From Escherichia coli (GTDB taxonomy: Bacteria; Pseudomonadota; Gammaproteobacteria; Enterobacterales; Enterobacteriaceae), in assembly GCF_009931435.1 (NCBI RefSeq), contig NZ_CP043414.1: a stretch of 64,000 bases of DNA. The stretch is one strand, 5' to 3'. A program made the translations under genes and the position numbers. The notes below the pieces were generated by a model. The model saw only the letters and a list, made by a program, of their open reading frames with translations. It ran no database searches and was not told the DNA's origin. Positions within the stretch are counted from its first letter, which is position 1. Each line of letters begins with the position of its first letter. Below are positions 10,852 through 60,335 of this stretch, one piece after another.

Positions 10852-12462
10852 TCAGTTGTCGCCTTTGAATACCGTTCCTGCCGGGATCAGCGGATTTTTT
10901 TCCGATGCTTCTACCGGTGTCTGCGGGAGATAATCTTCAACTTGATGAGCCGGGATATCGGCGTAATCCTGCTTCAGCCAGCGAATAAATCCACCGACTT
11001 TCACCAGTAAAATAACGAGGAAGGGCAGGGCTGTTAGTACCACAGTGGTTTTCATGGTTTCCAGCGATGCGCCAGTAAATAAGATAGACAGTGGGATCAG
11101 GGTGATCACCACGCACCAGAATAGGCGAAGACCACGGTCAGGGTCGTCACCTTCCTGAAGATTTCGCGTACTGGTCGCCGCCATAGTGTAGGCCACCGCA
11201 TCCATATGCGAGGCAAGGAAAATAATCATCACGCCCAGGTATGCGGCGAGGAATAATTTACCGGCTGGCAATGACATCAGAACTTGTTGAACGGCAGTTT
11301 CACCGCCCAACGTTTCCAGCACTTGCGGGACGTTGATCACGCCATTGATAAACTGATGAATAGCATAGCTTTCCATTACGCCGAAGAAGAACCAGCAGCC
11401 GACGGTGCTTCCGAGGATCAAGCCCCAAATAACTTCTTTGATCTTACGACCACGCGATACGCGAGTGACAAACATTGCTACGCCGGGCGTGTAAGAGATC
11501 CACCAGAGCCAGTAGAAAACGGTCCAGTTGCGGGTAAATAAACCATCGCCAAGTGGATCGGTAAATAAACTCATTTGCAGGAAGTTTTGGGTGGTCAGGC
11601 CGATGGCATTGATGATGCTGTTGGTAATAAATTCGGTTGGGCCGACAATCAGGACCAGCAATGGCAGAAGGAACGCCCCCCAGCCGACCATTTTGCTCAG
11701 ACGTTGCAAACCGTTGTTGATACCAATCCACGAGCTTAGGCAAAAAATGCCGCCGGAAAGCAGGATAACAAAAGCCTGAACGGTGAAGTTATCTGGTAAA
11801 CCGGTCAGTGCGGAAAGTCCACGAGTAAAGGTTGCGGCGGTGACGACCAGGGAAATAGTCAGCGCACCGACAGTGGCGATCAGGAACATCAAATCAACCA
11901 GTTTTCCCCACGGGCCTTGCGGACGAACGCCGGTAATAGCAGCAATAATGCCGGAAAGGCTCAGCCCTTTATTTTTCCGCACATGAAAGTGATAAGCCAT
12001 GATTAATGAGGCCAGCGTATAAGTTGCCCAGGCGCTGATGCCCCAGTGGAAGAAGGAGTAGGGAACGCTAAATTCGAGTGCCTGTTGTGAACGCGGTGCG
12101 ATATTTAATCCAGGCGTTTGATAATAATAGGCCCATTCAGCAACCCCCCAATAAAGCGTAGAAGAACCTAAACCTGCACAAATAAACATAAACAGCCAGG
12201 AGAGCGTGCTGTATTCCGGTTTTCCTTCGCCAAGACGAATATTGCCGTATTTACTGGTGGCTAAATAAATCACCAGTCCCATTGCCAGCAAAACCAATAC
12301 CTGTACGGCGGAACCTAACGTACGCGTGACAAAAGTGTATATAGCGTTGGCCGCGTCGGCCGATTGTTGTGGGAAAAGGCTTAATGCAGCTGCGATGAAA
12401 AGAATGGCCACCAGGCTGATGCTTATCAACGGCACATCTTTTTTCTTAACATTGCTCATCAT
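10852..12462 (-). CDS. yeaV: BCCT-family betaine/carnitine/choline transporter
   Basis: 536-aa ORF, multiple TM segments; true start may be an internal Met. Confidence 0.8.
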
Positions 12463-38660: not shown

Positions 38661-38820
38661 GTATTCTCCCAACTTAAGGTCACACCTGTCACAGGCGCAA
38701 TAGATGTGGTTATCGTAATGACCCAACCGGCACTTGTCAGCAGGAATTGCGGACTGTGCTGTAACAAAATCCACTCTCGTGTTAATTTTGTGAATAAATA
38801 TCATGACAGGAGTTAATCAA

Positions 38821-39372
38821 ATGGATGCACTCGAACTATTGATCAATCGCCGTAGCGCCTCCCGCCTGGCTGAACCTGCGCCAACGGGTGAACAACTGCA
38901 AAACATCCTGCGTGCGGGTATGCGTGCCCCGGACCATAAGTCCATGCAACCGTGGCATTTTTTTGTGATTGAAGGGGAAGGACGCGAGCGTTTCAGCGCA
39001 TTATTGGAACAGGGGGCGATTGCTGCCGGTAGTGATGACAAAGCTATCGACAAAGCGCGTAATGCGCCGTTCCGCGCACCGCTCATCATAACGGTGGTGG
39101 CAAAATGCGAAGAAAATCATAAAGTCCCGCGCTGGGAACAGGAAATGTCTGCGGGATGTGCGGTCATGGCGATGCAAATGGCAGCAGTTGCCCAGGGGTT
39201 TGGCGGTATCTGGCGCAGTGGCGCATTAACTGAAAGTCCGGTAGTGCGTGAAGCATTCGGTTGCCGTGAGCAGGATAAAATTGTCGGTTTTCTCTACCTT
39301 GGTACGCCGCAGTTGAAAGCATCTACGTCGATAAACGTCCCGGACCCGACGCCGTTTGTGACTTATTTCTGA
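38821..39372 (+). CDS. ydjA: NAD(P)H nitroreductase YdjA
   Basis: ORF 38803..39372; start set at [13 protein letters not shown] (183 aa). Confidence 0.85.
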
Positions 39373-39488
39373 TAATTGTCGCGAAACTGTCTGGATTGTG
39401 AGCAAAGGCGCAGGAATTCAGACACTCTCACTTATCACTTCATGGAATGAGGGTTACCATACCCGGATTGCATTGACAGGAGATGTCC

Positions 39489-40532
39489 ATGAGCGAGAAC
39501 TCGATTCGTTTGACCCAATACAGCCACGGTGCAGGTTGCGGCTGTAAAATTTCCCCAAAAGTGTTGGAGACCATCCTGCACAGTGAGCAGGCGAAGTTTG
39601 TTGATCCGAATTTGCTTGTGGGTAATGAAACCCGCGACGATGCGGCGGTGTACGATCTGGGCAATGGCACCAGCGTTATCAGTACCACCGACTTCTTTAT
39701 GCCGATCGTTGATAATCCTTTCGATTTTGGCCGCATTGCGGCGACTAACGCCATCAGCGATATCTTCGCGATGGGTGGCAAACCGATTATGGCGATTGCG
39801 ATCCTCGGCTGGCCTATTAACAAACTTTCCCCTGAAATTGCCCGCGAAGTAACCGAAGGTGGACGCTATGCATGCCGTCAGGCGGGTATTGCGCTGGCTG
39901 GCGGTCACTCCATCGATGCGCCGGAGCCGATTTTTGGTCTGGCGGTAACGGGGATCGTACCGACCGAGCGGGTGAAGAAAAACAGTACTGCACAAGCCGG
40001 ATGCAAACTGTTCCTGACGAAACCGCTGGGAATTGGCGTTCTTACTACGGCTGAGAAAAAATCACTGCTGAAACCAGAACATCAGGGACTAGCGACGGAA
40101 GTGATGTGCCGGATGAATATTGCAGGCGCGTCCTTTGCCAACATCGAAGGCGTAAAAGCGATGACTGACGTGACTGGTTTTGGTCTGCTGGGGCATTTGA
40201 GCGAAATGTGTCAGGGTGCTGGTGTGCAGGCGCGAGTCGACTATGACGCGATCCCGAAACTGCCGGGGGTTGAAGAGTACATTAAGTTGGGCGCAGTGCC
40301 TGGCGGCACCGAACGTAACTTTGCCAGCTATGGGCATCTGATGGGTGAAATGCCGCGTGAAGTGCGCGATCTGCTGTGCGATCCGCAAACTTCTGGCGGT
40401 CTGCTGCTGGCGGTCATGCCGGAAGCAGAAAATGAGGTCAAAGCTACAGCCGCCGAGTTTGGCATTGAACTGACGGCGATTGGCGAACTGGTGCCAGCGC
40501 GCGGCGGTCGTGCCATGGTTGAGATCCGTTAA
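39489..40532 (+). CDS. selD: Selenide, water dikinase (selenophosphate synthetase)
   Basis: ORF 39483..40532; start set at [10 protein letters not shown] (347 aa); N-terminal [11 protein letters not shown] with Cys at the Sec/Cys position. Confidence 0.9.
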
Positions 40533-40536
40533 TTCA

Positions 40537-42492
40537 ATGCGGTTGTTTATTGCCGAAAAACCGAGTCTGGCGCGCGCCATTGCTGATGTCCTGCCCAAAC
40601 CGCACCGGAAAGGCGATGGCTTTATCGAGTGCGGTAATGGCCAGGTGGTGACCTGGTGTATCGGTCACCTGCTTGAGCAGGCGCAGCCAGACGCCTACGA
40701 CAGTCGCTATGCGCGCTGGAACCTGGCCGATCTCCCCATTGTCCCGGAAAAGTGGCAATTACAGCCACGACCCTCCGTGACCAAACAACTTAATGTGATC
40801 AAACGCTTCCTGCATGAAGCCAGCGAAATCGTTCACGCCGGGGACCCGGATCGCGAAGGACAATTGCTGGTGGATGAAGTGCTGGACTACCTGCAACTGG
40901 CACCGGAAAAGCGCCAGCAGGTACAGCGTTGTTTGATAAACGACCTGAACCCGCAGGCGGTTGAGCGGGCGATCGATCGTCTTCGCTCCAATAGCGAGTT
41001 TGTACCACTGTGCGTTTCTGCGCTGGCGCGAGCACGAGCCGACTGGTTATACGGCATCAATATGACCCGCGCGTACACCATTCTCGGTCGTAATGCGGGT
41101 TATCAGGGCGTGCTTTCCGTGGGACGCGTGCAGACGCCCGTGCTCGGGCTGGTGGTGCGCCGCGATGAAGAAATTGAAAACTTCGTGGCTAAAGACTTCT
41201 TTGAAGTCAAAGCGCATATCGTGACACCTGCCGATGAGCGGTTTACCGCTATCTGGCAACCGAGCGAAGCGTGTGAACCGTACCAGGATGAAGAAGGGCG
41301 CTTGTTACATCGTCCGCTGGCGGAGCATGTAGTTAACCGCATTAGTGGTCAACCGGCTATTGTCACCAGCTATAACGATAAACGGGAATCAGAATCCGCG
41401 CCGCTGCCGTTTTCGCTTTCGGCGTTGCAGATTGAAGCGGCAAAACGCTTTGGTCTGAGCGCGCAGAATGTGCTTGATATTTGCCAGAAGCTGTACGAAA
41501 CGCACAAGCTAATCACTTATCCGCGTTCCGATTGTCGCTATTTGCCAGAAGAACATTTTGCCGGACGCCACGCGGTGATGAATGCTATCGGCGTCCATGC
41601 GCCGGATCTGTTGCCGCAACCAGTGGTAGATCCAGATATACGCAACCGCTGTTGGGATGACAAAAAGGTCGATGCGCACCACGCCATCATCCCGACCGCG
41701 AGGAGTTCTGCCATCAACCTGACGGAAAACGAGGCGAAGGTCTATAACCTGATTGCTCGTCAGTATTTGATGCAGTTCTGTCCGGACGCGGTGTTCCGCA
41801 AGTGTGTTATCGAACTGGAAATAGCCAAAGGCAAATTTGTCGCTAAAGCCCGTTTTCTAGCTGAAGCAGGCTGGCGCACGCTGTTAGGCAGCAAAGAGCG
41901 CGATGAAGAAAACGACGGCACGCCACTGCCTGTGGTGGCGAAAGGCGATGAGTTGCTGTGTGAAAAAGGTGAAGTGGTAGAGCGGCAAACCCAGCCGCCG
42001 CGCCATTTTACCGATGCAACACTGCTTTCGGCGATGACCGGGATCGCGCGCTTTGTGCAGGACAAAGATCTGAAAAAGATCCTTCGTGCCACCGATGGTC
42101 TGGGGACAGAAGCGACTCGCGCCGGGATTATTGAACTGCTGTTCAAGCGAGGCTTCCTGACCAAAAAAGGGCGCTATATCCACTCCACCGACGCCGGAAA
42201 AGCATTATTCCATTCGCTGCCAGAGATGGCGACGCGACCGGACATGACCGCGCACTGGGAATCGGTGCTGACGCAAATCAGCGAAAAGCAGTGTCGCTAT
42301 CAGGACTTTATGCAACCGTTGGTGGGGACGCTGTATCAGTTGATTGATCAGGCCAAACGTACGCCGGTGCGGCAGTTTCGCGGCATAGTGGCTCCAGATG
42401 GCGGAGAAGGAAATAAAAAGACTTCATCACGTAAGCGAGCAGCGAAAAAAAGCCCGCCATCAGCAGAGGCGGGCAGTGGAGTGATAATGTAA
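40537..42492 (+). CDS. topB: DNA topoisomerase III
   Basis: ORF 40480..42492; start set at [14 protein letters not shown], 4 bp after the selD stop; basic C-terminal tail. Confidence 0.9.
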
Positions 42493-43919: not shown

Positions 43920-44154
43920 AGATATAAAACCCTTATATATTAATACGATTATGCTTATGTTGTTTATGTCATGTGCTTTTGCAGTTTTCGACTATACCAT
44001 CAAGAATGTGACGGTAAGCAAGAAAAAAATGACTCACGAAAGCAAATTAATAACGGGAGAAATCTCATAACCAAAAGCGATAACTCAGACGCTAAAGTTT
44101 TGCCGCCAGGCTACCGTTATCAGTAACAGAGACAAAAACGTTAAGGAGTTCCCT

Positions 44155-44427
44155 GTGAGTCGAGCATTGTTCGCCCTAGCATTGGCATTTCCATTCATTG
44201 CACTGGCTAACCCGCATTATCGTCCGGACGTGGAGGTAAACGTACCGCCTGAAGTATTCAGTTCAGGCGGGCAGTCAGCGCAGCCCTGTAATCAGTGCTG
44301 CGTCTATCAGGATCAAAACTATTCTGAAGGGGCGGTAATTAAAGCCGAAGGAATACTGCTGCAATGCCAGCGGGATGACAAAACTCTTGGCACTAATCCG
44401 CTGGTCTGGCGGCGCGTAAAGCCATAA
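44155..44427 (+). CDS. ynjH: DUF1496 exported protein YnjH
   Basis: 90-aa ORF with signal peptide; 3-prime end overlaps nudG by 35 bp. Confidence 0.8.
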   Translation: MSRALFALALAFPFIALANPHYRPDVEVNVPPEVFSSGGQSAQPCNQCCVYQDQNYSEGAVIKAEGILLQCQRDDKTLGTNPLVWRRVKP

Positions 44428-44800
44428 ACGCCTTTAATAGTGGAATGTCAGCAGGGGCCAGCGGATATTGCAGCGCCTCTTCAGGTGAGCACCAGACCAG
44501 CGCCTGATGTTCATGTGCCTGTAACGTCCCGTGGAAGTGGGGTATGTGCCAGGCATGAAGATGGATAATCCGCCCCGAAACTTCTCGCTGATGGCTGGCA
44601 ACATACTCACCCACAGTTGCTTCGATGCCCAATTCTTCGCGTAACTCACGCACCAGCGCCTGCCGCTGGCTTTCATCCGGTTCGACTTTACCACCAGCAA
44701 ATTCCCATAATCCCGCTTGATCGCTATGCGTAGGGCGTTGCGCGATTAAAATTTTGTCATCCTGTTCGATGATGGCGGCAACAACATCAATCATTTTCAT
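44393..44800 (-). CDS. nudG: CTP pyrophosphohydrolase (Nudix)
   Basis: 135-aa ORF; Nudix box GGKVEPDESQRQALVRELREELGIE. Confidence 0.85.
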   Translation of the reverse strand: MKMIDVVAAIIEQDDKILIAQRPTHSDQAGLWEFAGGKVEPDESQRQALVRELREELGIEATVGEYVASHQREVSGRIIHLHAWHIPHFHGTLQAHEHQALVWCSPEEALQYPLAPADIPLLKAFMALRAARPAD

Positions 44801-44886
44801 AAATTACACACGGTCGAATACAGGAAAAATGCCATAATATCCGCAGTGTTGCTCAATCAGAAAGGCTTTATATTTAAGGAGTGCCT

Positions 44887-45507
44887 GTGTTAGACCGCCA
44901 TCTTCATCCCCGAATTAAACCTTTGTTGCATCAGTGTGTGAAGGTGCTGGATAAACCCGGCATTACGCCAGATGGTTTAACATTAGTGGGATTTGCCATC
45001 GGCGTGCTGGCACTGCCGTTTCTGGCGCTGGGCTGGTATCTGGCGGCGCTAATCGTCATTTTGTTGAACAGGCTGCTTGATGGTCTGGACGGCGCGTTGG
45101 CGCGGCGAAGAGGACTTACCGACGCGGGTGGCTTTCTCGATATTTCTCTCGATTTTCTTTTTTACGCACTGGTGCCTTTTGGGTTTATCCTCGCCGCACC
45201 GGAGCAAAACGCGCTGGCAGGCGGCTGGCTGCTGTTTGCGTTTATCGGCACGGGCAGCAGTTTTCTCGCTTTTGCTGCGCTGGCGGCGAAACATCAGATT
45301 GATAATCCCGGTTATGCGCATAAATCGTTTTATTATCTGGGCGGGTTAACCGAAGGCAGCGAGACGATTTTGCTGTTTGTTCTGAGTTGCCTCTTGCCAG
45401 CTTATTTTCCGTGGTTTGCGTGGGTATTTGGTGCGTTGTGCTGGATGACGACCTTTACGCGGGTGTGGAGTGGGTATCTGACGCTGAAGTCGCTCCAGCG
45501 CCAGTAA
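44887..45507 (+). CDS. ynjF: CDP-alcohol phosphatidyltransferase family membrane protein YnjF
   Basis: ORF 44881..45507; start set at second GTG (MLDRHLHP, 206 aa); motif DGLDGALAR. Confidence 0.8.
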   Translation: MLDRHLHPRIKPLLHQCVKVLDKPGITPDGLTLVGFAIGVLALPFLALGWYLAALIVILLNRLLDGLDGALARRRGLTDAGGFLDISLDFLFYALVPFGFILAAPEQNALAGGWLLFAFIGTGSSFLAFAALAAKHQIDNPGYAHKSFYYLGGLTEGSETILLFVLSCLLPAYFPWFAWVFGALCWMTTFTRVWSGYLTLKSLQRQ

Positions 45508-45515
45508 TTGCAATG

Positions 45516-46823
45516 TTATTTGCTGCTGTCCGGGCCGCGCTCACCGGTTGCTACGGGATTTTTCGGATCGCTGCTCCATTCGTACCAGCCGCCGTCGTAA
45601 ACGGAGACGTTATTCCAGCCCATTGCTCGTGCGTACATAAAGGTTTCGGACGCGCGCCAGCCGGTGCCGCAGTAGAATGAAACTTGCTGATCTGGTTTGA
45701 TATTCCATGCTTTCCACATAGCGGCAATATCATCGGCGCTACGCATGGTGCCATCCGGGTTATGGAAATCCTCCATATGCGTCGAGTCGCTACCAGCGTG
45801 TCCCCAACGGGCTCCGGCTATTTCACCTTTTGGCTTAATATAGCTGTAACCACTGGTCGTACCGATAAATTCTGGCCACGAACGAATGCTCACCAGCGAT
45901 GCATCCTGGCGATGCAGCAGCCCACGGGCCTGTTCCATATCAAGCATCAACTGCGGTTGCGCCGGGATCTTCACGCCGAAATCCGGTTCAGCTTTCACTT
46001 TCGGTGGCGTTCCGCGCTCAACAGGCAGTCCCGCGTCGGACCAGGTTTGCCAGCCGCCGTCCAGCAGGCGCACATCTTTCACCCCTGCATAGAGCATAAT
46101 CTGTGCTACACGCGCTGCTGCGTATACATCACGACCATATAGAATCACCGTGGTGTCATGACGAATGCCATGCTTTGCCAGCATCGCTTTCAGTTGTTCA
46201 TCAGAGACTTTATTCCACAGCGGTTCGCTTTCCACTTCATTGGTATCGATGTAATCCGCGCCGGGAATATGGCTGATAAGGTAAAGCTTAGGAGCGCCCC
46301 AGGCCGCTTCAATGACTTTCCAGTCACCGGCAGGTTTCGCCGTAACCTCTTTACCCTGTTGCAGGTCATGCAGCCATTGCGGATAAACCAGCTGCTCAAA
46401 GTGCGGCAGTTTTTGCAGACGGGAAGGTTCGCTTAGCGCGTCACTCAGGATGGAGATATGCGTAAAACCTGCTTTTTGCAGTCGCGTTTTGACGGCGTCG
46501 ACATCTTTGTCATTACCGTACAGCGCCACCGGAGCGTCGGTTTTCAGGTTATGTTGCTTGATCCACGCGTTGAGCTGTTCGGTGCTCATTTTGTCGAGCC
46601 AGCTAGCAGAGAGGTTTAAGGCGGCAGGTTCATGACCGGAAGGGCCATTTAAGGTTTGTGGCCAGCCGTTATAAAACGCGCTGGGGCGAGTATCTATCGC
46701 TTTGCCATTTTGTTGTTGAAGCTGGTCAAGAGTAAGAGGCTTCGCCAGTTCAGCGGCCCACGAAGAAGCGCAAGCCAGCCCTAAAGCCATTGCCAGCGCG
46801 GTCATTTGAGAAACACGTTTCAT
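45516..46823 (-). CDS. ynjE: Periplasmic thiosulfate sulfurtransferase (triple rhodanese)
   Basis: ORF 45516..46871; start set at MKRVSQMTALAM (435 aa); rhodanese active-site loop FYCGTGWRASE. Confidence 0.85.
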   Translation of the reverse strand: MKRVSQMTALAMALGLACASSWAAELAKPLTLDQLQQQNGKAIDTRPSAFYNGWPQTLNGPSGHEPAALNLSASWLDKMSTEQLNAWIKQHNLKTDAPVALYGNDKDVDAVKTRLQKAGFTHISILSDALSEPSRLQKLPHFEQLVYPQWLHDLQQGKEVTAKPAGDWKVIEAAWGAPKLYLISHIPGADYIDTNEVESEPLWNKVSDEQLKAMLAKHGIRHDTTVILYGRDVYAAARVAQIMLYAGVKDVRLLDGGWQTWSDAGLPVERGTPPKVKAEPDFGVKIPAQPQLMLDMEQARGLLHRQDASLVSIRSWPEFIGTTSGYSYIKPKGEIAGARWGHAGSDSTHMEDFHNPDGTMRSADDIAAMWKAWNIKPDQQVSFYCGTGWRASETFMYARAMGWNNVSVYDGGWYEWSSDPKNPVATGERGPDSSK

Positions 46824-46889
46824 CGAAAATCCCGACATTGTAGTTTTGAGTGCGCCATTCTGAACTGACACATTGGGAAAAACTTTGCG

Positions 46890-47543
46890 TTATCGCAGTT
46901 TGTTGTAATTTTCTGACCACTGCGCCATATCCAGAACAGAACTATCAGCAGGAACATCCTGGAGATCGTGCGTTACCTGAACGACGGGGATCGCCAGTTC
47001 GCGAACTTCGCTGAACACCCACTGGCGAAAATTATCGCGCAGAGCCACATCAAGACGGCTGAACGGCTCATCCAGGAGTAACGCTTTTGGCTGGGCGAGA
47101 AGGGCGCGTAGCAGAGCAACGCGCGCTCGCTGACCGCCAGACAAAGTGGCAGGATCCTGATGGAAAGCTCCGTCAAGGCCTGAACGCTCAAGTGCATCAT
47201 TCACGGCATTACGTCGGGCATTCCCCTTAAGTGTCTCCGGTAGCGCCAGCAGTAAATTTTGCCCGACGCTGAACTGGTCAAATAACAGTGCATCCTGGAA
47301 AAGAATGCCAATCTGACGCTGTGCGGTGGGTAGCATGTCAATCCGTTGCTCATTGAGCCATAGCTCACCTGCACAAGAAAACTGTCCGGCCAGCGCACCA
47401 ATCATCCATGAAAACAGTGTAGATTTTCCACAGCCAGACGGCCCCATTAACGTGACAATGTCACCTTTATCCACCGTAAAGTTAACGTTTGTCAGCAAGC
47501 GGCTTTCTGGTAAACGTAGCGAAACATTTTTCACGCAGAGCAT
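46890..47543 (-). CDS. ynjD: ABC transporter ATP-binding protein YnjD
   Basis: ORF 46890..47630; start set at MLCVKNVSLRL (217 aa); Walker A GPSGCGKST, signature LSGGQRARV. Confidence 0.8.
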   Translation of the reverse strand: MLCVKNVSLRLPESRLLTNVNFTVDKGDIVTLMGPSGCGKSTLFSWMIGALAGQFSCAGELWLNEQRIDMLPTAQRQIGILFQDALLFDQFSVGQNLLLALPETLKGNARRNAVNDALERSGLDGAFHQDPATLSGGQRARVALLRALLAQPKALLLDEPFSRLDVALRDNFRQWVFSEVRELAIPVVQVTHDLQDVPADSSVLDMAQWSENYNKLR

Positions 47544-49078
47544 TAGCGGAGTCCTTGTCTGACATAACCTACCCATTTTGCGACTAACGCGGTCAGGGCA
47601 AAAATAATAAGCGGCAACAGTAGTTGCCATAAAGCCTGGGCGGCGAGAATGCCGTTGCTGCCGCCGCTGCTTAATGCCACCGCTTCAGTGGTGAGTGTCG
47701 GAAAACGCCCCGCGCCCAGCCACAGCGTCGGCATATACTGCGCAATACTGACTGAAAATCCCACCGCGAAGGTAATCAGCGCAGGGCGCAACATGAGTGG
47801 GCATTTCACGTAAAAGAAGATTTTGGCCCGCGACCAGCCCAGTGTTTGCGCAATCAAAATTAACCGTGAATCAATGCGCTGCCAGGCGGGTTGCAGGATA
47901 AACAGCATCCACGGCATTACCCACAGCAGATGCCCCCAGACCACCGCTGTCCAGTTCCCATCTATGTTCAGCCATAGCGCCAGCATGTACTGGCCCGCCA
48001 CCAGCGGCAGAGCGGGTAATAAAATGGGCAACCAGAGCCACAACTGGCGACGCTTTGCCCCCCATTCCAGCCACAGCAGTAACAGGACCAAAGCGATAAA
48101 CGTCGCCACCAGCCCCATTGTCAGGCTGTTGATGAGCGCTTCACTATTGATCGTCGACTGATCCGCGAGGATCGCCAGCAGAGCCACACAGAGCACACCG
48201 GTTAAGGGTAAAAAAATCGCCAGTGTATTACCGGGTAATAAAGGAGTGGCGTGCTTACGAACGCCATCTTCCTGGGGGATCGTGCGTCGCCAGGCGCGCC
48301 ATAACAGATAACCAAGCAAAACGTAGGCGGCGAGTAACAGCATCAGCAGCAGACTGGCAAGCGCGCCTTTTGTCTGTTGGTCAATGCCACCCTGGGTTAG
48401 CCACTGCCAGCTAATTACCGCCAGCGTCGGTGGATTACCCGGCCCGAGAATAATTGCCACATCCACGACCGACAACGACCATGCCACAATAGCCAGCATC
48501 GCCATTGCCAGTGCAGGCGCGACGGAGGGCAACAACAACCAGTTCAGACATTGCCAGCGGCTGTAGCCCAGCGAATCCAGTACAATAACCTGCTGCAACA
48601 GCCGTTTCTCGCTCAATACTGCCGCTAAGATCCACAGCAGAAATGCGCTTTCTTTCACCGCCAGGGTAAGGCCCAGCCCAATACCCAATTTATCCATCGG
48701 CGGAGTGAGAAAAGGAAAAACCTGATAAACCAGGCCACCTTCAGCAAACAGCAACAGGGCGCTGGTGGCAAAAGCCACATGGGGAATGGCGAGCAGCCAC
48801 GGCAGACGGGCGCACATACGCTGCCATTTCGGCCCAGGCCACAGCGCCATAACTACCAGCAGGGCAATCGTCAATGCGCCGAGCGCCGCGATGGTTGTTG
48901 ACACCAGCGTCGCCAGTAATGCCTGCGGTAGCTGCGGATCGGCAAATAACGCCTGCCAGTGTGCCAACGACAAAGCAGGCGATATCAGCGTGAACGCCGC
49001 CGGGATCAGCGGTGCATAAATCACCGCCACCATCGCCCACAGCAACAAGATTAATGCGTACCGTAACGGTGTAGCCAT
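47543..49078 (-). CDS. ynjC: ABC transporter permease YnjC
   Basis: ORF 47543..49102; start tentatively at MATPLRYALILL; stop shares 1 nt with the ynjD start. Confidence 0.75.
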   Translation of the reverse strand: MATPLRYALILLLWAMVAVIYAPLIPAAFTLISPALSLAHWQALFADPQLPQALLATLVSTTIAALGALTIALLVVMALWPGPKWQRMCARLPWLLAIPHVAFATSALLLFAEGGLVYQVFPFLTPPMDKLGIGLGLTLAVKESAFLLWILAAVLSEKRLLQQVIVLDSLGYSRWQCLNWLLLPSVAPALAMAMLAIVAWSLSVVDVAIILGPGNPPTLAVISWQWLTQGGIDQQTKGALASLLLMLLLAAYVLLGYLLWRAWRRTIPQEDGVRKHATPLLPGNTLAIFLPLTGVLCVALLAILADQSTINSEALINSLTMGLVATFIALVLLLLWLEWGAKRRQLWLWLPILLPALPLVAGQYMLALWLNIDGNWTAVVWGHLLWVMPWMLFILQPAWQRIDSRLILIAQTLGWSRAKIFFYVKCPLMLRPALITFAVGFSVSIAQYMPTLWLGAGRFPTLTTEAVALSSGGSNGILAAQALWQLLLPLIIFALTALVAKWVGYVRQGLR

Positions 49079-50220
49079 TCTTGTTCCAGCGCATTTACCC
49101 AACCTGCGTGCGGTTCAGCCAGTACCGGCGGCAGATCCTGCGGCATTCTTGATTGCAATATTTCGCGCTGCCCGTCAGGCAGTTTTTGTGGATCGAGAAC
49201 CGATGGATCGCCCCAGACAGCAGGGTCTGCTTTACGTAGCTGTGCATCAGGTGAGAGCAGGAAATTGGCAACCACCTTCGCCGCAGCACTGGCATTCGCG
49301 TTGGCAGGAACGGTGACGAAATGCACGTTGCCAATCATCCCCTCGCGAAAGCCAAAACTGTAACTGCTTGCCGGCAAATCGCCACTGGCGATTTTTTGCT
49401 GGGCATGTGCAGGATTAAAGGTCAGCGACAGGCGCAATGTGCCAGTTTTCAGCAGAGCATCCATCCGCGCGGGCGAAGGTGGGAAATCCTTTCCTTCGCG
49501 CCATAGATACGGATGCAGCGCATCAAGATATTGCCACAAGGGCGCAGTGATACGGGCGAAAGTCGCATCGTTCGGCGCTTCTTTTAATGCTGCGGGATCT
49601 GGCGTCAGCATAATCAGTAACTGTTCAAGAAATGCGGTGCCAGTAAAGTCTGGCGGGCGCGGATAGGTAACCGTGCCAGGATTGGCTTTAGCGAATTCCA
49701 GTAAGGCTTGCGGTGTTTGTGGTGGCAGTGGCGTAACATCGCGGCGGGCGATAAACGTCAGTTGTGCGCCGCCCCACGGCGATTCTGCGCCTTCGACAGG
49801 TACAGAAAAATCTTCCCGTACCGGCAGTTGTGTATCGACATAACGCCAGTTTGGCAGAGTCTCAGCCCAGCCGGTTTGCAGTAAATTGGCCTCTTTTAAG
49901 GTGCGGAAGTTTTCGCCGTTCACCCAGAGCAGATCCACCGAACCGCCTGTCTCGCGCCCGGCTGCGGCTTCGGTCTGAATGCGCTTCACCGCGTCTGCGG
50001 CATCCGCCAGGCGGACAATCTTCAGGTTTATATCATAATGGGTTTTCATCTCGCCGCTAACCCAGTCGAGATAGCGGTTAATTGCGGTATCGCCGCCCCA
50101 GGCGTTAAACCAGACGGTTTGCCCTTTGGCCTCATTTTTAACTTCCTGCCAGTCACTGGCATGTGTTGCCAGAGAAAACAGCGATAACAATCCCAGCAAC
50201 CACCCACAATGGCGCATCAT
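49051..50220 (-). CDS. ynjB: ABC transporter periplasmic substrate-binding protein YnjB
   Basis: 389-aa ORF with signal peptide; start may be second Met. Confidence 0.8.
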   Translation of the reverse strand: MMRHCGWLLGLLSLFSLATHASDWQEVKNEAKGQTVWFNAWGGDTAINRYLDWVSGEMKTHYDINLKIVRLADAADAVKRIQTEAAAGRETGGSVDLLWVNGENFRTLKEANLLQTGWAETLPNWRYVDTQLPVREDFSVPVEGAESPWGGAQLTFIARRDVTPLPPQTPQALLEFAKANPGTVTYPRPPDFTGTAFLEQLLIMLTPDPAALKEAPNDATFARITAPLWQYLDALHPYLWREGKDFPPSPARMDALLKTGTLRLSLTFNPAHAQQKIASGDLPASSYSFGFREGMIGNVHFVTVPANANASAAAKVVANFLLSPDAQLRKADPAVWGDPSVLDPQKLPDGQREILQSRMPQDLPPVLAEPHAGWVNALEQEWLHRYGTH

Positions 50221-50226
50221 CTCTCC

Positions 50227-50775
50227 TTAAGAACGTTTTTCAGGAATACGGCACAGCCCCTGAGCGGGAATGTCCATGGCAGAATTAAAACGGGCTGACA
50301 GATTTTGCAGGCCGATCAATGCCGTCAGTTCGGTGAGCGCCTGGGCGTCAAAATGCGTAGCCAGTCGGGTACGCAGGGCTGCATCGACTGTTGGCGGCGT
50401 TACGCTTGCGGCTTCGGCGTACTCCAGCGCCAGCCGTTCTTCATCGCTAAAGAGCGGGCTTTGCCGCCAGTCAGCCACTGCCAGCAGTTTATCGGTGCTG
50501 CCAGTGCGCTCGGCGACTTTCATACTGGTGATATCCACGCAAAACTCACACAGGCACATTTGCGCAATGCGCGCGCTGACAAGCGATCGCACTACCGGAT
50601 CGAGCGGTGAGCGTTTACGCTCCAGCCAACCGACAAACATCGACACCAGATAAAAGATAAACGGGATCCGTCCCCACCAGCGAATTGGACTTAGCACCTC
50701 GCCGTAATGGCGACGATGCAGCCACGCCTGCGGACGTAAACTTAAAGGAATTTTGCTAAGCGGTGGTAAACCCAT
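50227..50775 (-). CDS. ynjA: AhpD-like / carboxymuconolactone decarboxylase family protein YnjA
   Basis: 182-aa ORF; cysteine motif CLCEFC. Confidence 0.8.
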   Translation of the reverse strand: MGLPPLSKIPLSLRPQAWLHRRHYGEVLSPIRWWGRIPFIFYLVSMFVGWLERKRSPLDPVVRSLVSARIAQMCLCEFCVDITSMKVAERTGSTDKLLAVADWRQSPLFSDEERLALEYAEAASVTPPTVDAALRTRLATHFDAQALTELTALIGLQNLSARFNSAMDIPAQGLCRIPEKRS

Positions 50776-51482
50776 CAGGCATTCCTCTTCTGGCGTTCAA
50801 GCCATATTTTTTTCGCCATAAAAATCACCACGGTCAGGGCAAACAGAATAAACAGTCCGGTGACAAACCAGAAGGTACCGCCCGTTAACATACTGCCCGC
50901 CCAGGAATAAACAATAGTCGCCGGTAACTGACCAAGCCCGGTGGCGATAAAAAACGAGCGAAAACGTATTGACGTCAAACCGGCAGCATAGCTGATTGGA
51001 TCGAAAGGGACAAAAGGCAATAACCGGCATACCAGGATAGTGTGTTTGCCGTAGCGAGTGAAAAAGCCGTCCATACTGTCAAGCACGGTTTTACCGGTTA
51101 ATTTTTCCACCACTTCGCGGCCCATCACTCTGGCAATAAAAAAGCATAGCGCCGCGCCCGCCATAGAACTGGTCCACGACAGCAAGCCACCCCAGAACGC
51201 ACCGAACAGCGAGGCATTGGCAAAGGTGATCAAAAATGCAGGCAGCGGTGCAGCAATGGCCTGTAAAATCATCAACATGAACGAGACAACTGCTGCCAGT
51301 GCGCCGTAAGACTGAATAAAGCGTTCTATACCCTGTTGGTCCACGGCGGCAAACGCCGCAACGCTGCGATTGATAAACTGATGGACGCCGGGAAGCAGTG
51401 CCCATGCCAGCAGCATAGCGAACAACAGGATGATGAGGGTTATACGGTAGTACCAGATTTTACGCGATTGCATCTTCATCAT
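50775..51482 (-). CDS. ydjZ: TVP38/TMEM64 (DedA-like) family membrane protein YdjZ
   Basis: 235-aa ORF; stop shares 1 nt with the ynjA start. Confidence 0.8.
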   Translation of the reverse strand: MMKMQSRKIWYYRITLIILLFAMLLAWALLPGVHQFINRSVAAFAAVDQQGIERFIQSYGALAAVVSFMLMILQAIAAPLPAFLITFANASLFGAFWGGLLSWTSSMAGAALCFFIARVMGREVVEKLTGKTVLDSMDGFFTRYGKHTILVCRLLPFVPFDPISYAAGLTSIRFRSFFIATGLGQLPATIVYSWAGSMLTGGTFWFVTGLFILFALTVVIFMAKKIWLERQKRNA

Positions 51483-51496
51483 CCTTTATCGTGGCT

Positions 51497-52174
51497 TTAT
51501 TCGGTGATTTTAAAGGTAACCGTAGCCAGCGTGTTATCTGCCGGGAGAACCGAGGCATTGCCTTTGAATTGCACTTCACCACGTTTTTCCACCGCACCAT
51601 AAGTGTATGTTGCATTGCTGACGATGCCGACCGGGCAGCTATCCAGACATACCAGGCAGCCCGTTTTCTTCTCTTCTGCGGCGGCTAAATTACCGCCAAA
51701 GCGCATGTCCAGTTTTTTACCGTTATTGTCGACAATCACCTCATCGAATGAATACGCTTTTGCTGCCCCTTGCCAGTTGACCGAAATATCCAGTTTGCTG
51801 CCCGCTACATGAGTCGTTTCTTTATTCTCCATGGTCATGTTTTCGCCCGGGATACCACCGGCTTGTTTCAGTGCTTCATAAAATGCTTTCGGGGTCGCAT
51901 AACCCATAAACAGCGATTTATGTCCGTTGGAGCCATCTTTAAACACTATGCCGTGTCGAGTGTCGTCTGTCAGGAAACGGCCATTAATTTGTACCAGCAT
52001 GGTGACCGTATGGTTATTGTTATCGACACGCAGTGGTTGGCTGTCTGAAAGCCCGTCGTATTCCACTTTTGCTGCCGCATTCTCTTTTTGATCGCAGCCA
52101 CTAAGCCCGGCAACGGCCAGTAAACACAGTGCAGCCAGTCCTTTTTTCCATGACGCTGAATAATGTTGCAACAT
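51497..52174 (-). CDS. ydjY: Lipoprotein YdjY
   Basis: ORF 51497..52336; start set at MLQHYSASWKKG (225 aa); lipobox LSGC; C-terminal CLVCLDSCP cysteine cluster. Confidence 0.75.
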   Translation of the reverse strand: MLQHYSASWKKGLAALCLLAVAGLSGCDQKENAAAKVEYDGLSDSQPLRVDNNNHTVTMLVQINGRFLTDDTRHGIVFKDGSNGHKSLFMGYATPKAFYEALKQAGGIPGENMTMENKETTHVAGSKLDISVNWQGAAKAYSFDEVIVDNNGKKLDMRFGGNLAAAEEKKTGCLVCLDSCPVGIVSNATYTYGAVEKRGEVQFKGNASVLPADNTLATVTFKITE

Positions 52175-52178
52175 CGTT

Positions 52179-52889
52179 CTATCCTTCATTTTTGGGGTGA
52201 GTAAGTGGGCTGCGGCGCGAAGCAGACAGATCCACGTGTTTGTGTCGGGCGTAGAGTTTGGCAAGCTGGACGAGAATAAACAGTGCCAGGCCCGCCAGAC
52301 AGAGTTGTAAAATAAAGCGCAGCGTAATGCCTTCACTGGCGAGATCGCTGGCCATCACGGTATAAATAACGATACCGGGCAGGGTAGTGAGTGCCGAAAT
52401 AAAGGTATAAGGCCAGAAGGCGATAGTGGTTAATCCGTAGGCGTAATTTTGAATATTGTAAGGAAACAGCGGGATTAAGCGGGTAAGAATTAAAAAATCG
52501 ATACCGTTATGTGCAATGCCTTTTTCAATGGCCTGGAAGGTATGGCTGTGACCAACGTATTTCAGCAATAAATCGCGCCCCAAAAAGCGTGCCAACAGGA
52601 ATGAACTCGAGGAGGCCAGCGTGGCGGCAATTAATGATAGTAGTGTCCCTAAGATCGGGCCAAAAACTATGCCTCCAGCGATCACCAGTATGCTTCCTGG
52701 TAACAGAAAGAGGGTGGCAATGATGAATAACACAATATAAAGGCAATAACCGAACAATCCGCTCTGGCGAATGAGAGTTTGTAAGTGGGGTAAATCGGTG
52801 AGCAGATCGAATAAACCGCAAGCGTGGATAGCGTAAATGACCAGCGCAAAAATAAAACAGGCAAAAAGAAATTTACGCTCAGCGTTCAT
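52179..52889 (-). CDS. ydjX: TVP38/TMEM64 (DedA-like) family membrane protein YdjX
   Basis: ORF 52179..52937; start set at MNAERKFLFA (236 aa). Confidence 0.8.
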   Translation of the reverse strand: MNAERKFLFACFIFALVIYAIHACGLFDLLTDLPHLQTLIRQSGLFGYCLYIVLFIIATLFLLPGSILVIAGGIVFGPILGTLLSLIAATLASSSSFLLARFLGRDLLLKYVGHSHTFQAIEKGIAHNGIDFLILTRLIPLFPYNIQNYAYGLTTIAFWPYTFISALTTLPGIVIYTVMASDLASEGITLRFILQLCLAGLALFILVQLAKLYARHKHVDLSASRRSPLTHPKNEG

Positions 52890-53055
52890 TGTGGAGTTTC
52901 CTATATCAAACTTGATAATAGAGAAGTGGTCAGACAACTAAAAACGCAGTGACGGTATAACAAAGGACGGCAGGCAACAAATCATTACTGACAGTTTGTT
53001 GATTTTTCTCAAGGTTAATTCTCCTGACTCCGTTTGAGTCAGGAGAGCAGCTAAA

Positions 53056-53862
53056 TTAGCGGCGGAAGGTCGCCCAGACGGGGGCGTGATCGGACGGTTT
53101 TTCCATGCTGCGAATTTCATAGTCGATGCCGGTTTCTACGCAACATTCTGCCAGCGGTTGGCTGGCGAGAAGCAGGTCGATGCGCAGACCACGGTTATCG
53201 TCAAAACCTTTTGAGCGGTAATCAAACCATGAGAAACGATCTGCTGTTTGCGGATTCGCATGGCGGAAGGTATCGACCAACCCCCAGCTCATCAGTCTCT
53301 CCATCCATTCGCGTTCCTCCGGAAGGAAAGAACATTTTCCGGTACGCAGCCAGCGCTTACGGTTCTCTTCGCCAATGCCAATATCCAGGTCGGTAGGACT
53401 GATATTCATATCGCCCATAATCAGCACCGGATTTTCACGCTTGAGTTCGGTTTCCAAATAATTTTGCAGATTCTGATAAAACTGCGCCTTCGCCGGGAAT
53501 TTTATCGGATGGTCGCGGCTTTCACCCTGCGGGAAGTAACCGTTGATCACGGTGACATTGCCCAGCGGCGAGGGGATTTCCGCCATAATAATTCGCCGTT
53601 GTGCCTCTTCGCCGTCGTCAGGGAAGCCGCGACGCACAGCAATCGGCGTCTCTTTGGTCAACAATGCCACGCCGTAATGGCCTTTCTGCCCGTGATAAAA
53701 CACGTTGTAGCCGAGCTTTGCCACCTCTTCGAGCGGAAACATATCGTCATGAACTTTTGTCTCCTGCAGGCCAATCACATCCGGCTGGTGCTTTTCGACA
53801 ATGGCTTCAAGCTGGTGAGGTCTGGCGCGCAGGCCGTTGATATTAAAAGAGACAAATTTCAT
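53056..53862 (-). CDS. xthA: Exodeoxyribonuclease III
   Basis: ORF 53056..53874; start set at [14 protein letters not shown] (268 aa). Confidence 0.9.
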
Positions 53863-54219
53863 AGTCGCTGCCATTTATTCAGATAAAGAGTGCGTGGATG
53901 GTAGCAGAATTTCGCTTTGCTTACCGCCTGTTGTTAAGTGATTTGATCGATGGTTGTTAATGATGTCAACGATGGCGCAAAAATTGCCCGCTTTTGGTGC
54001 GCGCTGCGTCAGAATGGCGCAGTAATTTCCAGTAAATTTCGTCAATGATCACAATTCCAGAATTATATTTTACTTTTGCATAATATTGCGTTTTTTATTC
54101 TTTCTATTCACCATCATCGCAAACATATTCACTTTTTATGCACTTTAAATGCATAGCGTACAGTTATAACTCCTTGATTATCAGTTAATCGCCCCCTTTT
54201 ATGCACTTTTATCACTGGC

Positions 54220-54235
54220 TGGCACGAACCCTGCA
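54220..54235 (+). promoter_or_regulatory. Sigma-54 (-24/-12) promoter of astCADBE
   Basis: TGGCAC-gaacc-CTGCA matches TGGCAC-N5-TTGCA, about 73 bp upstream of the astC ATG; ArgR-box-like TATTCAC repeats lie further upstream. Confidence 0.5.
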
Positions 54236-54271
54236 ATCTACATTTACAGCGCAAACATTACTTATTATTAA

Positions 54272-60335
<6,064 letters not shown>

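Follow-up and report, generated by a model that had tools for sequence, protein, structure and literature searches.

Several described systems resemble parts of the ydjXYZ-ynjABCD operon and ynjE of Escherichia coli. In K-12 (b1750-b1757), ydjXYZ-ynjABCD was found by chromatin immunoprecipitation and RNA sequencing to be a single operon under direct activation by FNR, with the site at -60.5, and ynjE to be a separate FNR-activated unit with a site at -41.5 (Myers 2013). YdjX and YdjZ have been placed in the COG0398/TMEM41 branch of the DedA superfamily (TMEM41/Tvp38-like, with a VTT domain and predicted re-entrant loops), of which they are the E. coli members; this branch has been described as tied to aerobic metabolism, its DedA proteins as unlikely undecaprenyl-phosphate flippases, and its commonest fusions as those to pyridine-nucleotide disulfide oxidoreductases. 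YnjBCD shares its architecture with the ThiBPQ, PotABCD, PhnSTUV, FbpABC and MalE-type importers, among which its nearest profile matches and folds are found. YnjE has a relative in EanB, the anaerobic ergothioneine synthase of Chlorobium limicola (PDB 6KTV, 6H98), a rhodanese-like enzyme that forms the ergothioneine C-S bond from a persulfide. Our literature searches turned up no work that addresses the function of ydjXYZ-ynjABCD or ynjF directly. Here we analysed the cluster as it occurs at positions 45516-52889 of a 64,000-nucleotide stretch of E. coli DNA (the window). Its locus, operon structure and FNR regulator were already known; the functional lead, toward selenium or another chalcogen, is new. 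We tentatively propose that ydjXYZ-ynjABCD and ynjE together form an anaerobic envelope system, under FNR according to the literature, that would take in a thiol-reactive chalcogen, most likely selenium, with sulfane sulfur or a metalloid as alternative cargoes.

The lead begins with YdjY (51497-52174, minus strand), a 225-aa protein with the lipobox LSGC and Asp at +2, a residue that suggests retention in the inner membrane. Near its C-terminus lies the cluster C173-x2-C176-x3-C180, so that the lipoprotein with a C-terminal Cys cluster reported in an earlier, sequence-only reading of this DNA was correctly recognized. Relatives in Finegoldia, Peptostreptococcus, Gemella, Facklamia, Clostridium, Sulfurospirillum, Campylobacter, Syntrophus, Desulfarculus and a spirochaete are 47-60% identical to it, and R73, H74, C173, C176 and C180 are invariant across these five phyla. 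Such conservation is unusually high for an exported protein. The only profile match was the NCBIfam 'ydjY_domain' model, and a PDB sequence search with YdjY returned nothing beyond chance-level ferredoxin-motif hits (E ~0.6). Selenocysteine-containing variants were considered for three loci that seemed to lack a YdjY open reading frame (ORF) and were rejected; the gaps were an artefact of the ORF picker, and all three genes are intact and encode Cys.

Neighbourhoods of YdjY were compared in 80 genome loci from five phyla, in 77 of which a simple ORF caller placed YdjY. Genes in these loci were called as the longest ORF, a crude method that missed some of them (ydjX in four Escherichia loci, for instance); the neighbourhood was reproduced by a separate, independent set of gene calls carrying precomputed Pfam hits. 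A VTT-domain gene stood beside ydjY in 74 of the 77 loci, mostly immediately downstream. What stays constant is a partner from the YdjZ-like orthogroup (225-280 bits across phyla, Firmicutes and Campylobacterota included); YdjX-like genes accompany the YdjZ-like ones in 18 loci. The evolutionarily conserved core is YdjY with a YdjZ-like VTT protein, not the importer or the rhodanese. In the window, YdjX (52179-52889, 236 aa) and YdjZ (50775-51482, 235 aa), both on the minus strand, are VTT/DedA-superfamily membrane proteins, YdjX being a COG0398, TMEM41-like inner-membrane protein; Pfam VTT_dom matched at 1.2e-25 and 1.6e-24, and PF09335 scored 90.8 and 87.2 bits against a cut-off of 33.9, in agreement with the two DedA/TVP38 proteins named previously. 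A flippase of the UptA type (COG0586) was rejected as an identity for either, with 25.1 and 38.2 bits against a cut-off of 250; the acidic and basic residues at the re-entrant loop tips of the UptA type have been reported missing in COG0398. In contrast to the general description of COG0398, the YdjX/YdjZ orthogroup is FNR-activated, is found nearly always in anaerobes or facultative anaerobes, and always occurs with YdjY.

Around this core a wider set of families recurs. Outside Escherichia, 62 loci also encode a small four-helix membrane protein with the motif WLEMRVH, as a separate protein or as an N-terminal fusion to the YdjZ-like one. YnjB/C/D-like importers, with the permease as two genes, lie near YdjY in 11 loci (plus L029 and L035, from wider maps), and rhodanese-domain genes in 21 of the 80, many within 1 kb. 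The recurrence of both families beside YdjY in Firmicutes, Campylobacterota and Desulfobacterota justifies the grouping of ynjE and ynjBCD with ydjXYZ made in the sequence-only reading. Partners of thiol or selenol redox type replace each other by lineage: YnjA itself; CCG/HdrD-like iron-sulfur proteins (18 loci, plus three with CCG only), free or, in Desulfobacterota, fused to the VTT protein; CcdA with TlpA (five loci); a C_GCAxxG_C_C protein (three loci); and a PrdB-like protein (six loci), whose gene in Bacillus benzoevorans has an in-frame TGA giving U-x-x-C. Also near YdjY are an FtsX-type ABC transporter (15 loci), an APH-type kinase (11), TIGR04282/TIGR04283 transferases (about 15), an ArsS-type radical-SAM protein (eight), a nucleoside hydrolase (seven), a flippase-like LPG_synthase_TM protein (five) and, in four non-enteric loci, a CDP-alcohol phosphatidyltransferase of the family of YnjF.

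The set formed by ArsS, TIGR04282 and TIGR04283, formerly termed rSAM/selenodomain-associated, shares operons with YdjY, VTT, YnjBCD-like and rhodanese genes in Campylobacter, Catonella, Facklamia, Bacillus benzoevorans, Thermincola and others. Genes for TIGR04167, TIGR04282 and TIGR04283 were absent from the cluster in the window, though present in about 20 non-enteric YdjY loci; compared with those operons, the Escherichia cluster retains only the envelope, transport and redox parts. It looks like a reduced form of a larger, horizontally mobile system of anaerobes.

Individual loci show how compact the extended arrangement can be. An uncultured Campylobacter (L053, 2673-11401) carries nearly the whole of it in one tight operon, in the order YdjY, a four-transmembrane protein, kinase, YdjZ, YdjX, GT2, HdrD-like protein, ArsS-like protein and then a YnjE-like rhodanese; this last is a three-domain protein of 485 aa (E 7e-80 to YnjE). 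The YdjY-YnjBCD operon of Bacillus benzoevorans includes a PrdB/GrdB-like gene (L071, 13115-13876) in which the frame continues through the in-frame TGA as NPG-U-YIC, and the product is probably a selenoprotein with a U-x-x-C motif. In Sulfurospirillum (L087, 2433-9803, and L023), the YdjY module stands in divergent orientation beside a two-component system and a Psr/Phs-type molybdopterin oxidoreductase that has NrfD and iron-sulfur subunits.

Genes of selenium metabolism are found near YdjY in a minority of loci. Within 10 kb of YdjY, selD occurred in seven of the 80 loci, where about 0.4-0.6 would be expected by chance in the 1.27 Mb covered (Poisson P ~1e-6, or ~1e-3 to 4e-3 if four lineages are counted as the independent units). 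Partners including selD, yedF, selAB or tRNA-Sec were present in at least four independent lineages; YedF-like genes were found in eight loci (YedF confirmed by NCBIfam at 202 bits), DUF3343 in three and tRNA-Sec in three. Two co-directional arrangements with gaps of 58-79 nt, one of VTT-HdrD, YdjY and SelD and the other of SelD, YedF, a small ORF and YdjY, look operonic. In Facklamia, SelD, SelB and SelA, confirmed by NCBIfam, follow the cluster. In Facklamia lactis (L065, 11659-11755), tRNA-Sec lies 49 nt beyond the rhodanese gene next after ydjY, and L068 has a tRNA-Sec in the corresponding place (11714-11810); a few kb further out at both loci come SelD, a YedF-like gene, SelB and SelA. 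The YedE/YedF candidates for selenium transport and carriage are the nearest described counterparts: in several Desulfobacterota, YedF, DUF3343, a cysteine-desulfurase-like gene and SelD stand beside YdjY-VTT, and the proposed role, supply of selenium to SelD, is one shared with YedE/YedF and with selD-centred selenium-utilisation clusters. YdjX, YdjY and YdjZ have no sequence relationship to YedE or YedF; the link is by neighbourhood only. In the window, selD (39483-40532, plus strand; selenide, water dikinase, NCBIfam SelD 618.8 bits) lies 4984 bp past the ynjE stop, with topB, gdhA, ynjH, nudG and ynjF intervening. Its neighbours are ydjA (38803-39372) before it and topB (about 40531-42492) after it.

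From the ORF listing, a comparison with complete E. coli genomes and a reading of the minus strand, the interval 45516-52889 holds eight co-directional minus-strand genes. Nine had been announced in the heading of the sequence-only reading, although the names listed there also come to eight; its gene positions, strand and 1-nt overlaps at ydjZ/ynjA and ynjC/ynjD were read directly from the sequence here and agree. Gaps of 4 nt separate ydjX from ydjY and 14 nt ydjY from ydjZ; ydjZ and ynjA share 1 nt of stop and start (TGATG); ynjA and ynjB are 9 nt apart, or 6 nt counted from the first ATG; ynjB and ynjC overlap by 28 nt; and ynjC and ynjD share 1 nt (TAATG). The genes from ydjX to ynjD are translationally coupled. 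The tight head-to-tail coupling described earlier holds for this run; the 28-nt overlap had been passed over, and ynjE stands apart behind a 66-nt spacer.

Upstream of ydjX, an FNR-like site (TTGAGAAAAATCAA, 52999-53012) with one mismatch to TTGAT-N4-ATCAA lies about 116 nt from the ydjX ATG. It is identical in five other Escherichia loci and has one substitution in Citrobacter; together with the published occupancy and expression (Myers 2013), this conserved box places the ydjX operon in the FNR regulon. The site directly follows a hairpin with a perfect 10-bp stem just past the xthA stop (CTCCTGACTC-AAACG-GAGTCAGGAG, 53021-53045, minus strand), both arms of which covary in other Escherichia species. 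The hairpin would mark the upstream boundary of the ydjX transcription unit, as a putative terminator with no T-run. In the ydjX leader, an inverted repeat adjoining the ribosome-binding site (TATCAAGTTTGATA, 52904-52917, minus strand), invariant across Escherichia and with one insertion in Citrobacter, may serve as an operator or form a small hairpin in the RNA. For ynjE, the candidate promoter region is the end of ynjD and the ynjD-ynjE spacer (46837-46898, minus strand), where promoter-like hexamers (TTCAGA-16-TACAAT, 46864-46837) lie upstream of ynjE and a conserved palindrome (CTGCGATAACGCAA, 46885-46898) spans the ynjD stop. A search upstream of ynjE for the FNR consensus gave no match with two or fewer mismatches, and the FNR control of ynjE is therefore taken from Myers (2013) alone. 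Separate promoters with unrelated regulation had been named as what would speak against a single module. Instead, ydjX-ynjD is one transcription unit and ynjE, with its own promoter, is co-regulated with it, FNR activating both (Myers 2013). Published expression data show ynjE and ydjY falling together with hyc, hyb, dmsA and frdA, and BaeR overproduction mildly raising ynjA and ynjB, probably indirectly. A promoter scan (four hits, against 6.4 in shuffled sequence) and terminator-like hits, all inside coding sequence, were not used.

YnjE (45516-46823, minus strand, 435 aa) has a signal peptide, three rhodanese stretches recognized by Pfam and the active-site loop FYCGTGWRASE, in which CGTGWR is the catalytic Cys loop (C-x-x-G-x-R) of the rhodanese class; it matches the K-12 structures PDB 3IPO/2WLR at E ~1e-288 with few substitutions. 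The description as a periplasmic triple rhodanese was thus accurate. Outside Escherichia, its nearest characterized relatives are the EanB structures (E ~1e-88, full length). The Tyr353, Cys412 and Arg417 of EanB, whose roles in catalysis have been described (PMC10903977), are identical in YnjE, so YnjE may do more than shuttle sulfur. Unlike EanB, it has a signal peptide and is periplasmic, and no methyltransferase gene lies within 44000-54500, so that an EanA partner is lacking; for these reasons we did not class it as an ergothioneine synthase. Purified YnjE without its signal peptide had no apparent thiosulfate:glutathione sulfurtransferase activity and scarcely raised cellular sulfane sulfur from thiosulfate, and its physiological substrate was called unclear by the authors (PMC10215317).

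YnjA (50227-50775, minus strand) has no signal peptide. Its CMD domain (Pfam 3.7e-09) and its CLCEFC motif (C-x-C-x-x-C) bear out the previous description as an AhpD-like CxxC protein. AhpD of M. tuberculosis has the motif C-x-x-C-x-x-x-H, with a proton-relay His. Identity of YnjA as an AhpD-type alkylhydroperoxidase was rejected, as its sequence CEFCVDIT has Thr four positions past the second Cys and no His. Scores against peroxidase-related models were 22 and 19.7 bits, far under the cut-offs; the best NCBIfam match was a 'YciW-related (seleno)protein' model, below its cut-off, and the PDB relatives are PA0269-type proteins and Bmp8.

YnjB (49051-50217, 388 aa, signal peptide, Pfam SBP_bac_8), YnjC (47543-49078, 511 aa, a fused double permease, Pfam BPD_transp_1) and YnjD (46890-47543, 217 aa, Pfam ABC_tran 1.3e-29), all on the minus strand, comprise the secreted binding protein, permease and ATPase of a type I ABC importer. 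The ATPase motifs of YnjD are intact (GPSGCGKST, LSGGQ, LLLDEP) and a C-terminal regulatory domain is absent; with the Pfam domains, these motifs support the complete ABC importer claimed earlier. YnjBCD differs from ThiBPQ, PotABCD, PhnSTUV and FbpABC in equivalog scores far below the cut-offs, in its fused double permease (the ynjC-like permease is split into two genes in Firmicutes) and in its ATPase without a regulatory domain. Two candidate identities were rejected, the sulfate/thiosulfate transporter (CysPUWA, Sbp), for which YnjC scored 23.9 bits against 246 for CysT and YnjD 112.8 against 502 for CysA, and the thiamine transporter ThiBPQ, for which YnjD fell under the ThiQ cut-off. An Rfam search of the region matched no family and hence no riboswitch, that for thiamine pyrophosphate (TPP) included. 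A role in thiamine alone, set against the sulfur proposal in the sequence-only reading itself, was accordingly not borne out. YnjB matched only its own NCBIfam subfamily, PRK11622, and a PDB sequence search with it gave no match; its fold is equally close to binders of sugars, phosphonate, glycerophosphodiesters, polyamines, iron and thiamine. Every position that stays unchanged between the Escherichia and Clostridia proteins holds Trp, Tyr, Phe, Asp, Glu or Asn; no Cys is conserved. An extended search for YnjB homologues gave close enteric relatives only and no further genomic context.

The Cys3/His site of YdjY, the recurrent rhodanese and the swapped dithiol/selenol redox partners together argue for a thiol-reactive chalcogen or metalloid, and selenium appears to be the cargo with the most recurrent support. 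A possible order of transfer is as follows: in the periplasm, YnjE would carry the element on its active-site Cys as a persulfide- or perselenide-type adduct; YdjY, anchored in the inner membrane, would bind it at the invariant Cys3/His site; YdjZ and YdjX, probably paired, would move it across the membrane; and YnjA, in the cytoplasm, would receive or reduce it through its C-x-C-x-x-C, ultimately for SelD. YnjBCD would import an organic co-substrate or conjugate. What the data establish is the make-up of the genes, their protein families and their linkage in several phyla, with FNR control added from published work; the individual transfers and the cargo are inferences.

Several points weigh against this proposal. 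Most YdjY loci, among them those of Gemella, Finegoldia and Peptostreptococcus, have no selenium gene within 10 kb. The selD of the window is cut off from the cluster by the unrelated topB and gdhA, so that its proximity may be chance, and selenoproteins encoded at Facklamia and other loci could explain the nearby sel genes without a selenium cargo. Genes of the ArsS/TIGR04282/TIGR04283 set, named for arsenosugar biosynthesis, occupy the same neighbourhoods, and one locus abuts arsD-arsA; lipid-related neighbours (CDP-alcohol phosphatidyltransferase, flippase-like protein, GT2 glycosyltransferase) occur as well. The fold of YnjB points to no particular ligand. YnjE, when expressed without its signal peptide, reportedly takes part in molybdenum-cofactor sulfuration. 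The assignment of a substrate would throughout be one of guilt by association.

The dedicated sulfur or thiosulfate module of the sequence-only reading, in which YnjBCD imports the compound, YnjE mobilizes sulfane sulfur and YnjA acts as reductant, draws on the triple rhodanese with its intact CGTGWR loop, the AhpD-like C-x-x-C of YnjA, weak sub-threshold matches of YnjC to CysT and of YnjD to sulfate-transporter ATPases, the rhodanese and CCG/HdrD proteins that recur near YdjY, and the Psr/Phs-type molybdopterin oxidoreductase adjoining the Sulfurospirillum module. We consider it improbable. CysPUWA already serves thiosulfate and sulfate uptake in E. coli, the invariant YnjB residues, all aromatic, acidic or amide, bear no signature of an anion site, and YdjY and YdjZ, the most conserved parts, are left without a role. 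The enzymology of YnjE, with no apparent thiosulfate:glutathione activity and a substrate described as unclear (PMC10215317), and a YnjB unlike sulfate or thiosulfate binders speak against thiosulfate or sulfate as the substrate. What stands of the sulfur proposal is a coherent thiol or chalcogen module, now sharpened toward selenium; thiosulfate specifically does not stand. An equally low probability attaches to a pathway for a lipid or lipid-linked sugar, in which YdjX and YdjZ would scramble or flip a lipid made by a YnjF-type or GT2 enzyme, YdjY would act on the flipped head group, and YnjBCD would import or recycle the head-group precursor. The eukaryotic VTT/DedA relatives are phospholipid scramblases, which COG0398 proteins have been published to resemble; CDP-alcohol phosphatidyltransferases occur in four loci, in addition to ynjF beside ynjE; and LPG_synthase_TM flippase-like proteins (five loci), GT2 with DUF2064 nucleotidyltransferase-like proteins (about 15), APH-type kinases (11) and nucleoside hydrolases (seven) are frequent neighbours. 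YnjB, moreover, has a sugar-binder-like fold, with glycerophosphodiester binders near. However, the radical-SAM, kinase, nucleotidyltransferase and GT2 genes are lacking in Escherichia, the two-gene minimal modules of Gemella and Finegoldia have no lipid-synthesis gene nearby, and the invariant Cys3/His site, the rhodanese and the redox partners would go unexplained.

Less probable again is that the genes form no single system, separate functions being gathered under one anaerobic promoter, with YnjE in molybdenum-cofactor sulfuration and YnjBCD serving thiamine, a polyamine or phosphonate. The current product name of YnjE, molybdopterin synthase sulfurtransferase, is in keeping with this, as are the nearest models of YnjD (PhnT2, ThiQ, PotA) and YnjC (PhnU2) and the absence of the importer, and likewise of the rhodanese, from most YdjY loci. 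All of these model matches are far below their family cut-offs, however; the region has no TPP riboswitch (Rfam); and a YnjE with a signal peptide and periplasmic location is a poor fit with a cytoplasmic cofactor role. YdjY, VTT, YnjBCD-like importer and rhodanese genes also recur in single operons of unrelated phyla, a pattern that would be difficult to account for if they had no function in common. Arsenic or another metalloid is the main competitor of selenium as cargo, although as a complete account we rate it the least probable of these four: YdjY (C-x2-C-x3-C) and YnjA (C-x-C-x2-C) would bind As(III) or Sb(III), and organoarsenicals such as arsenosugars would be made or exported. Three-Cys sites are typical As(III) ligands, as in ArsR, ArsD and ArsM. 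YdjY operons contain NCBIfam equivalog hits above cut-off (ArsS at 432.8 bits, with TIGR04282 and TIGR04283, 'arsenosugar biosynthesis'), and one metagenomic locus lies beside LMWPc-ArsD-ArsA. Against this, neither ArsA nor ArsD was found in any of the 80 genome loci, the Escherichia cluster has no ArsS-type genes, and the family names come from cyanobacterial work, whereas many members in anaerobes are selenoproteins, as the model names '(seleno)protein' indicate.

The cluster is core Escherichia DNA. The grouping is no chance one: the block matched 5424 of 5426 complete E. coli genomes, with at least 80% query coverage in 5383 of the 5426; it is syntenic in other Escherichia species and in Citrobacter, and some of its parts are found side by side even in distant phyla. 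Gene number (eight), order and junctions are those of K-12 b1750-b1757, as are the flanks (xthA upstream; ynjF, nudG, ynjH and gdhA downstream), and sequence divergence is the only difference between the two. Over 8.3 kb (44800-53100), DNA identity was 94.3% to K-12 and 90-95% to almost all complete E. coli genomes; the closest match, at 98.7%, was strain 2020CK-00188, among a minority of the genomes labelled E. coli. The window thus comes from a divergent Escherichia lineage. Downstream, ynjF (44887-45507, plus strand) is convergent with ynjE and outside the operon. Its product, of the CDP-alcohol phosphatidyltransferase family, matches the phosphatidyltransferases of YdjY operons at E 1e-10 to 1e-14, which makes ynjF a possible ninth associate of the system. 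The stop codons of ynjF and ynjE are 8 nt apart (45507-45516), which leaves no room for a terminator, so that each transcript must enter the other gene. Further along, the convergent genes ynjH (44155-44427, plus strand) and nudG (44393-44800, minus strand) share 35 nt where their 3' ends meet; they are annotated likewise in K-12. A 574-aa database entry (P0122) that joins the CMD domain of YnjA to the SBP domain of YnjB, 96% identical to the window, is probably a read-through or assembly artefact and not a genuine fusion.

As a sequence feature, this is an ordinary core operon, already annotated in Escherichia, that encodes seven or eight co-regulated envelope proteins. The broadest form of the selenium proposal, possible but doubtful on present comparisons, is that YdjY with YdjZ/YdjX is an unrecognized uptake route for trace selenium shared across phyla, to which Escherichia would have added YnjE, YnjA and the importer, and which FNR would induce to feed SelD for the anaerobic selenoenzymes. 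Were this correct, the dedicated system by which enteric bacteria acquire selenium, long sought, would be identified, and the missing step, how trace selenium reaches SelD in anaerobiosis, would have a name. The YdjY family, so far without structural or functional precedent, would be assigned a role, and bacterial relatives of human TMEM41B and VMP1 would be seen to work with thiol-redox partners instead of, or besides, scrambling lipids, so that the TMEM41-like DedA branch in bacteria would gain a function other than on lipids. Should it be wrong, the linkage of YdjY, VTT protein, four-helix membrane protein, redox partner, rhodanese, importer and ArsS-type set would still define a coherent system, and one that is genetically tractable in E. 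coli.

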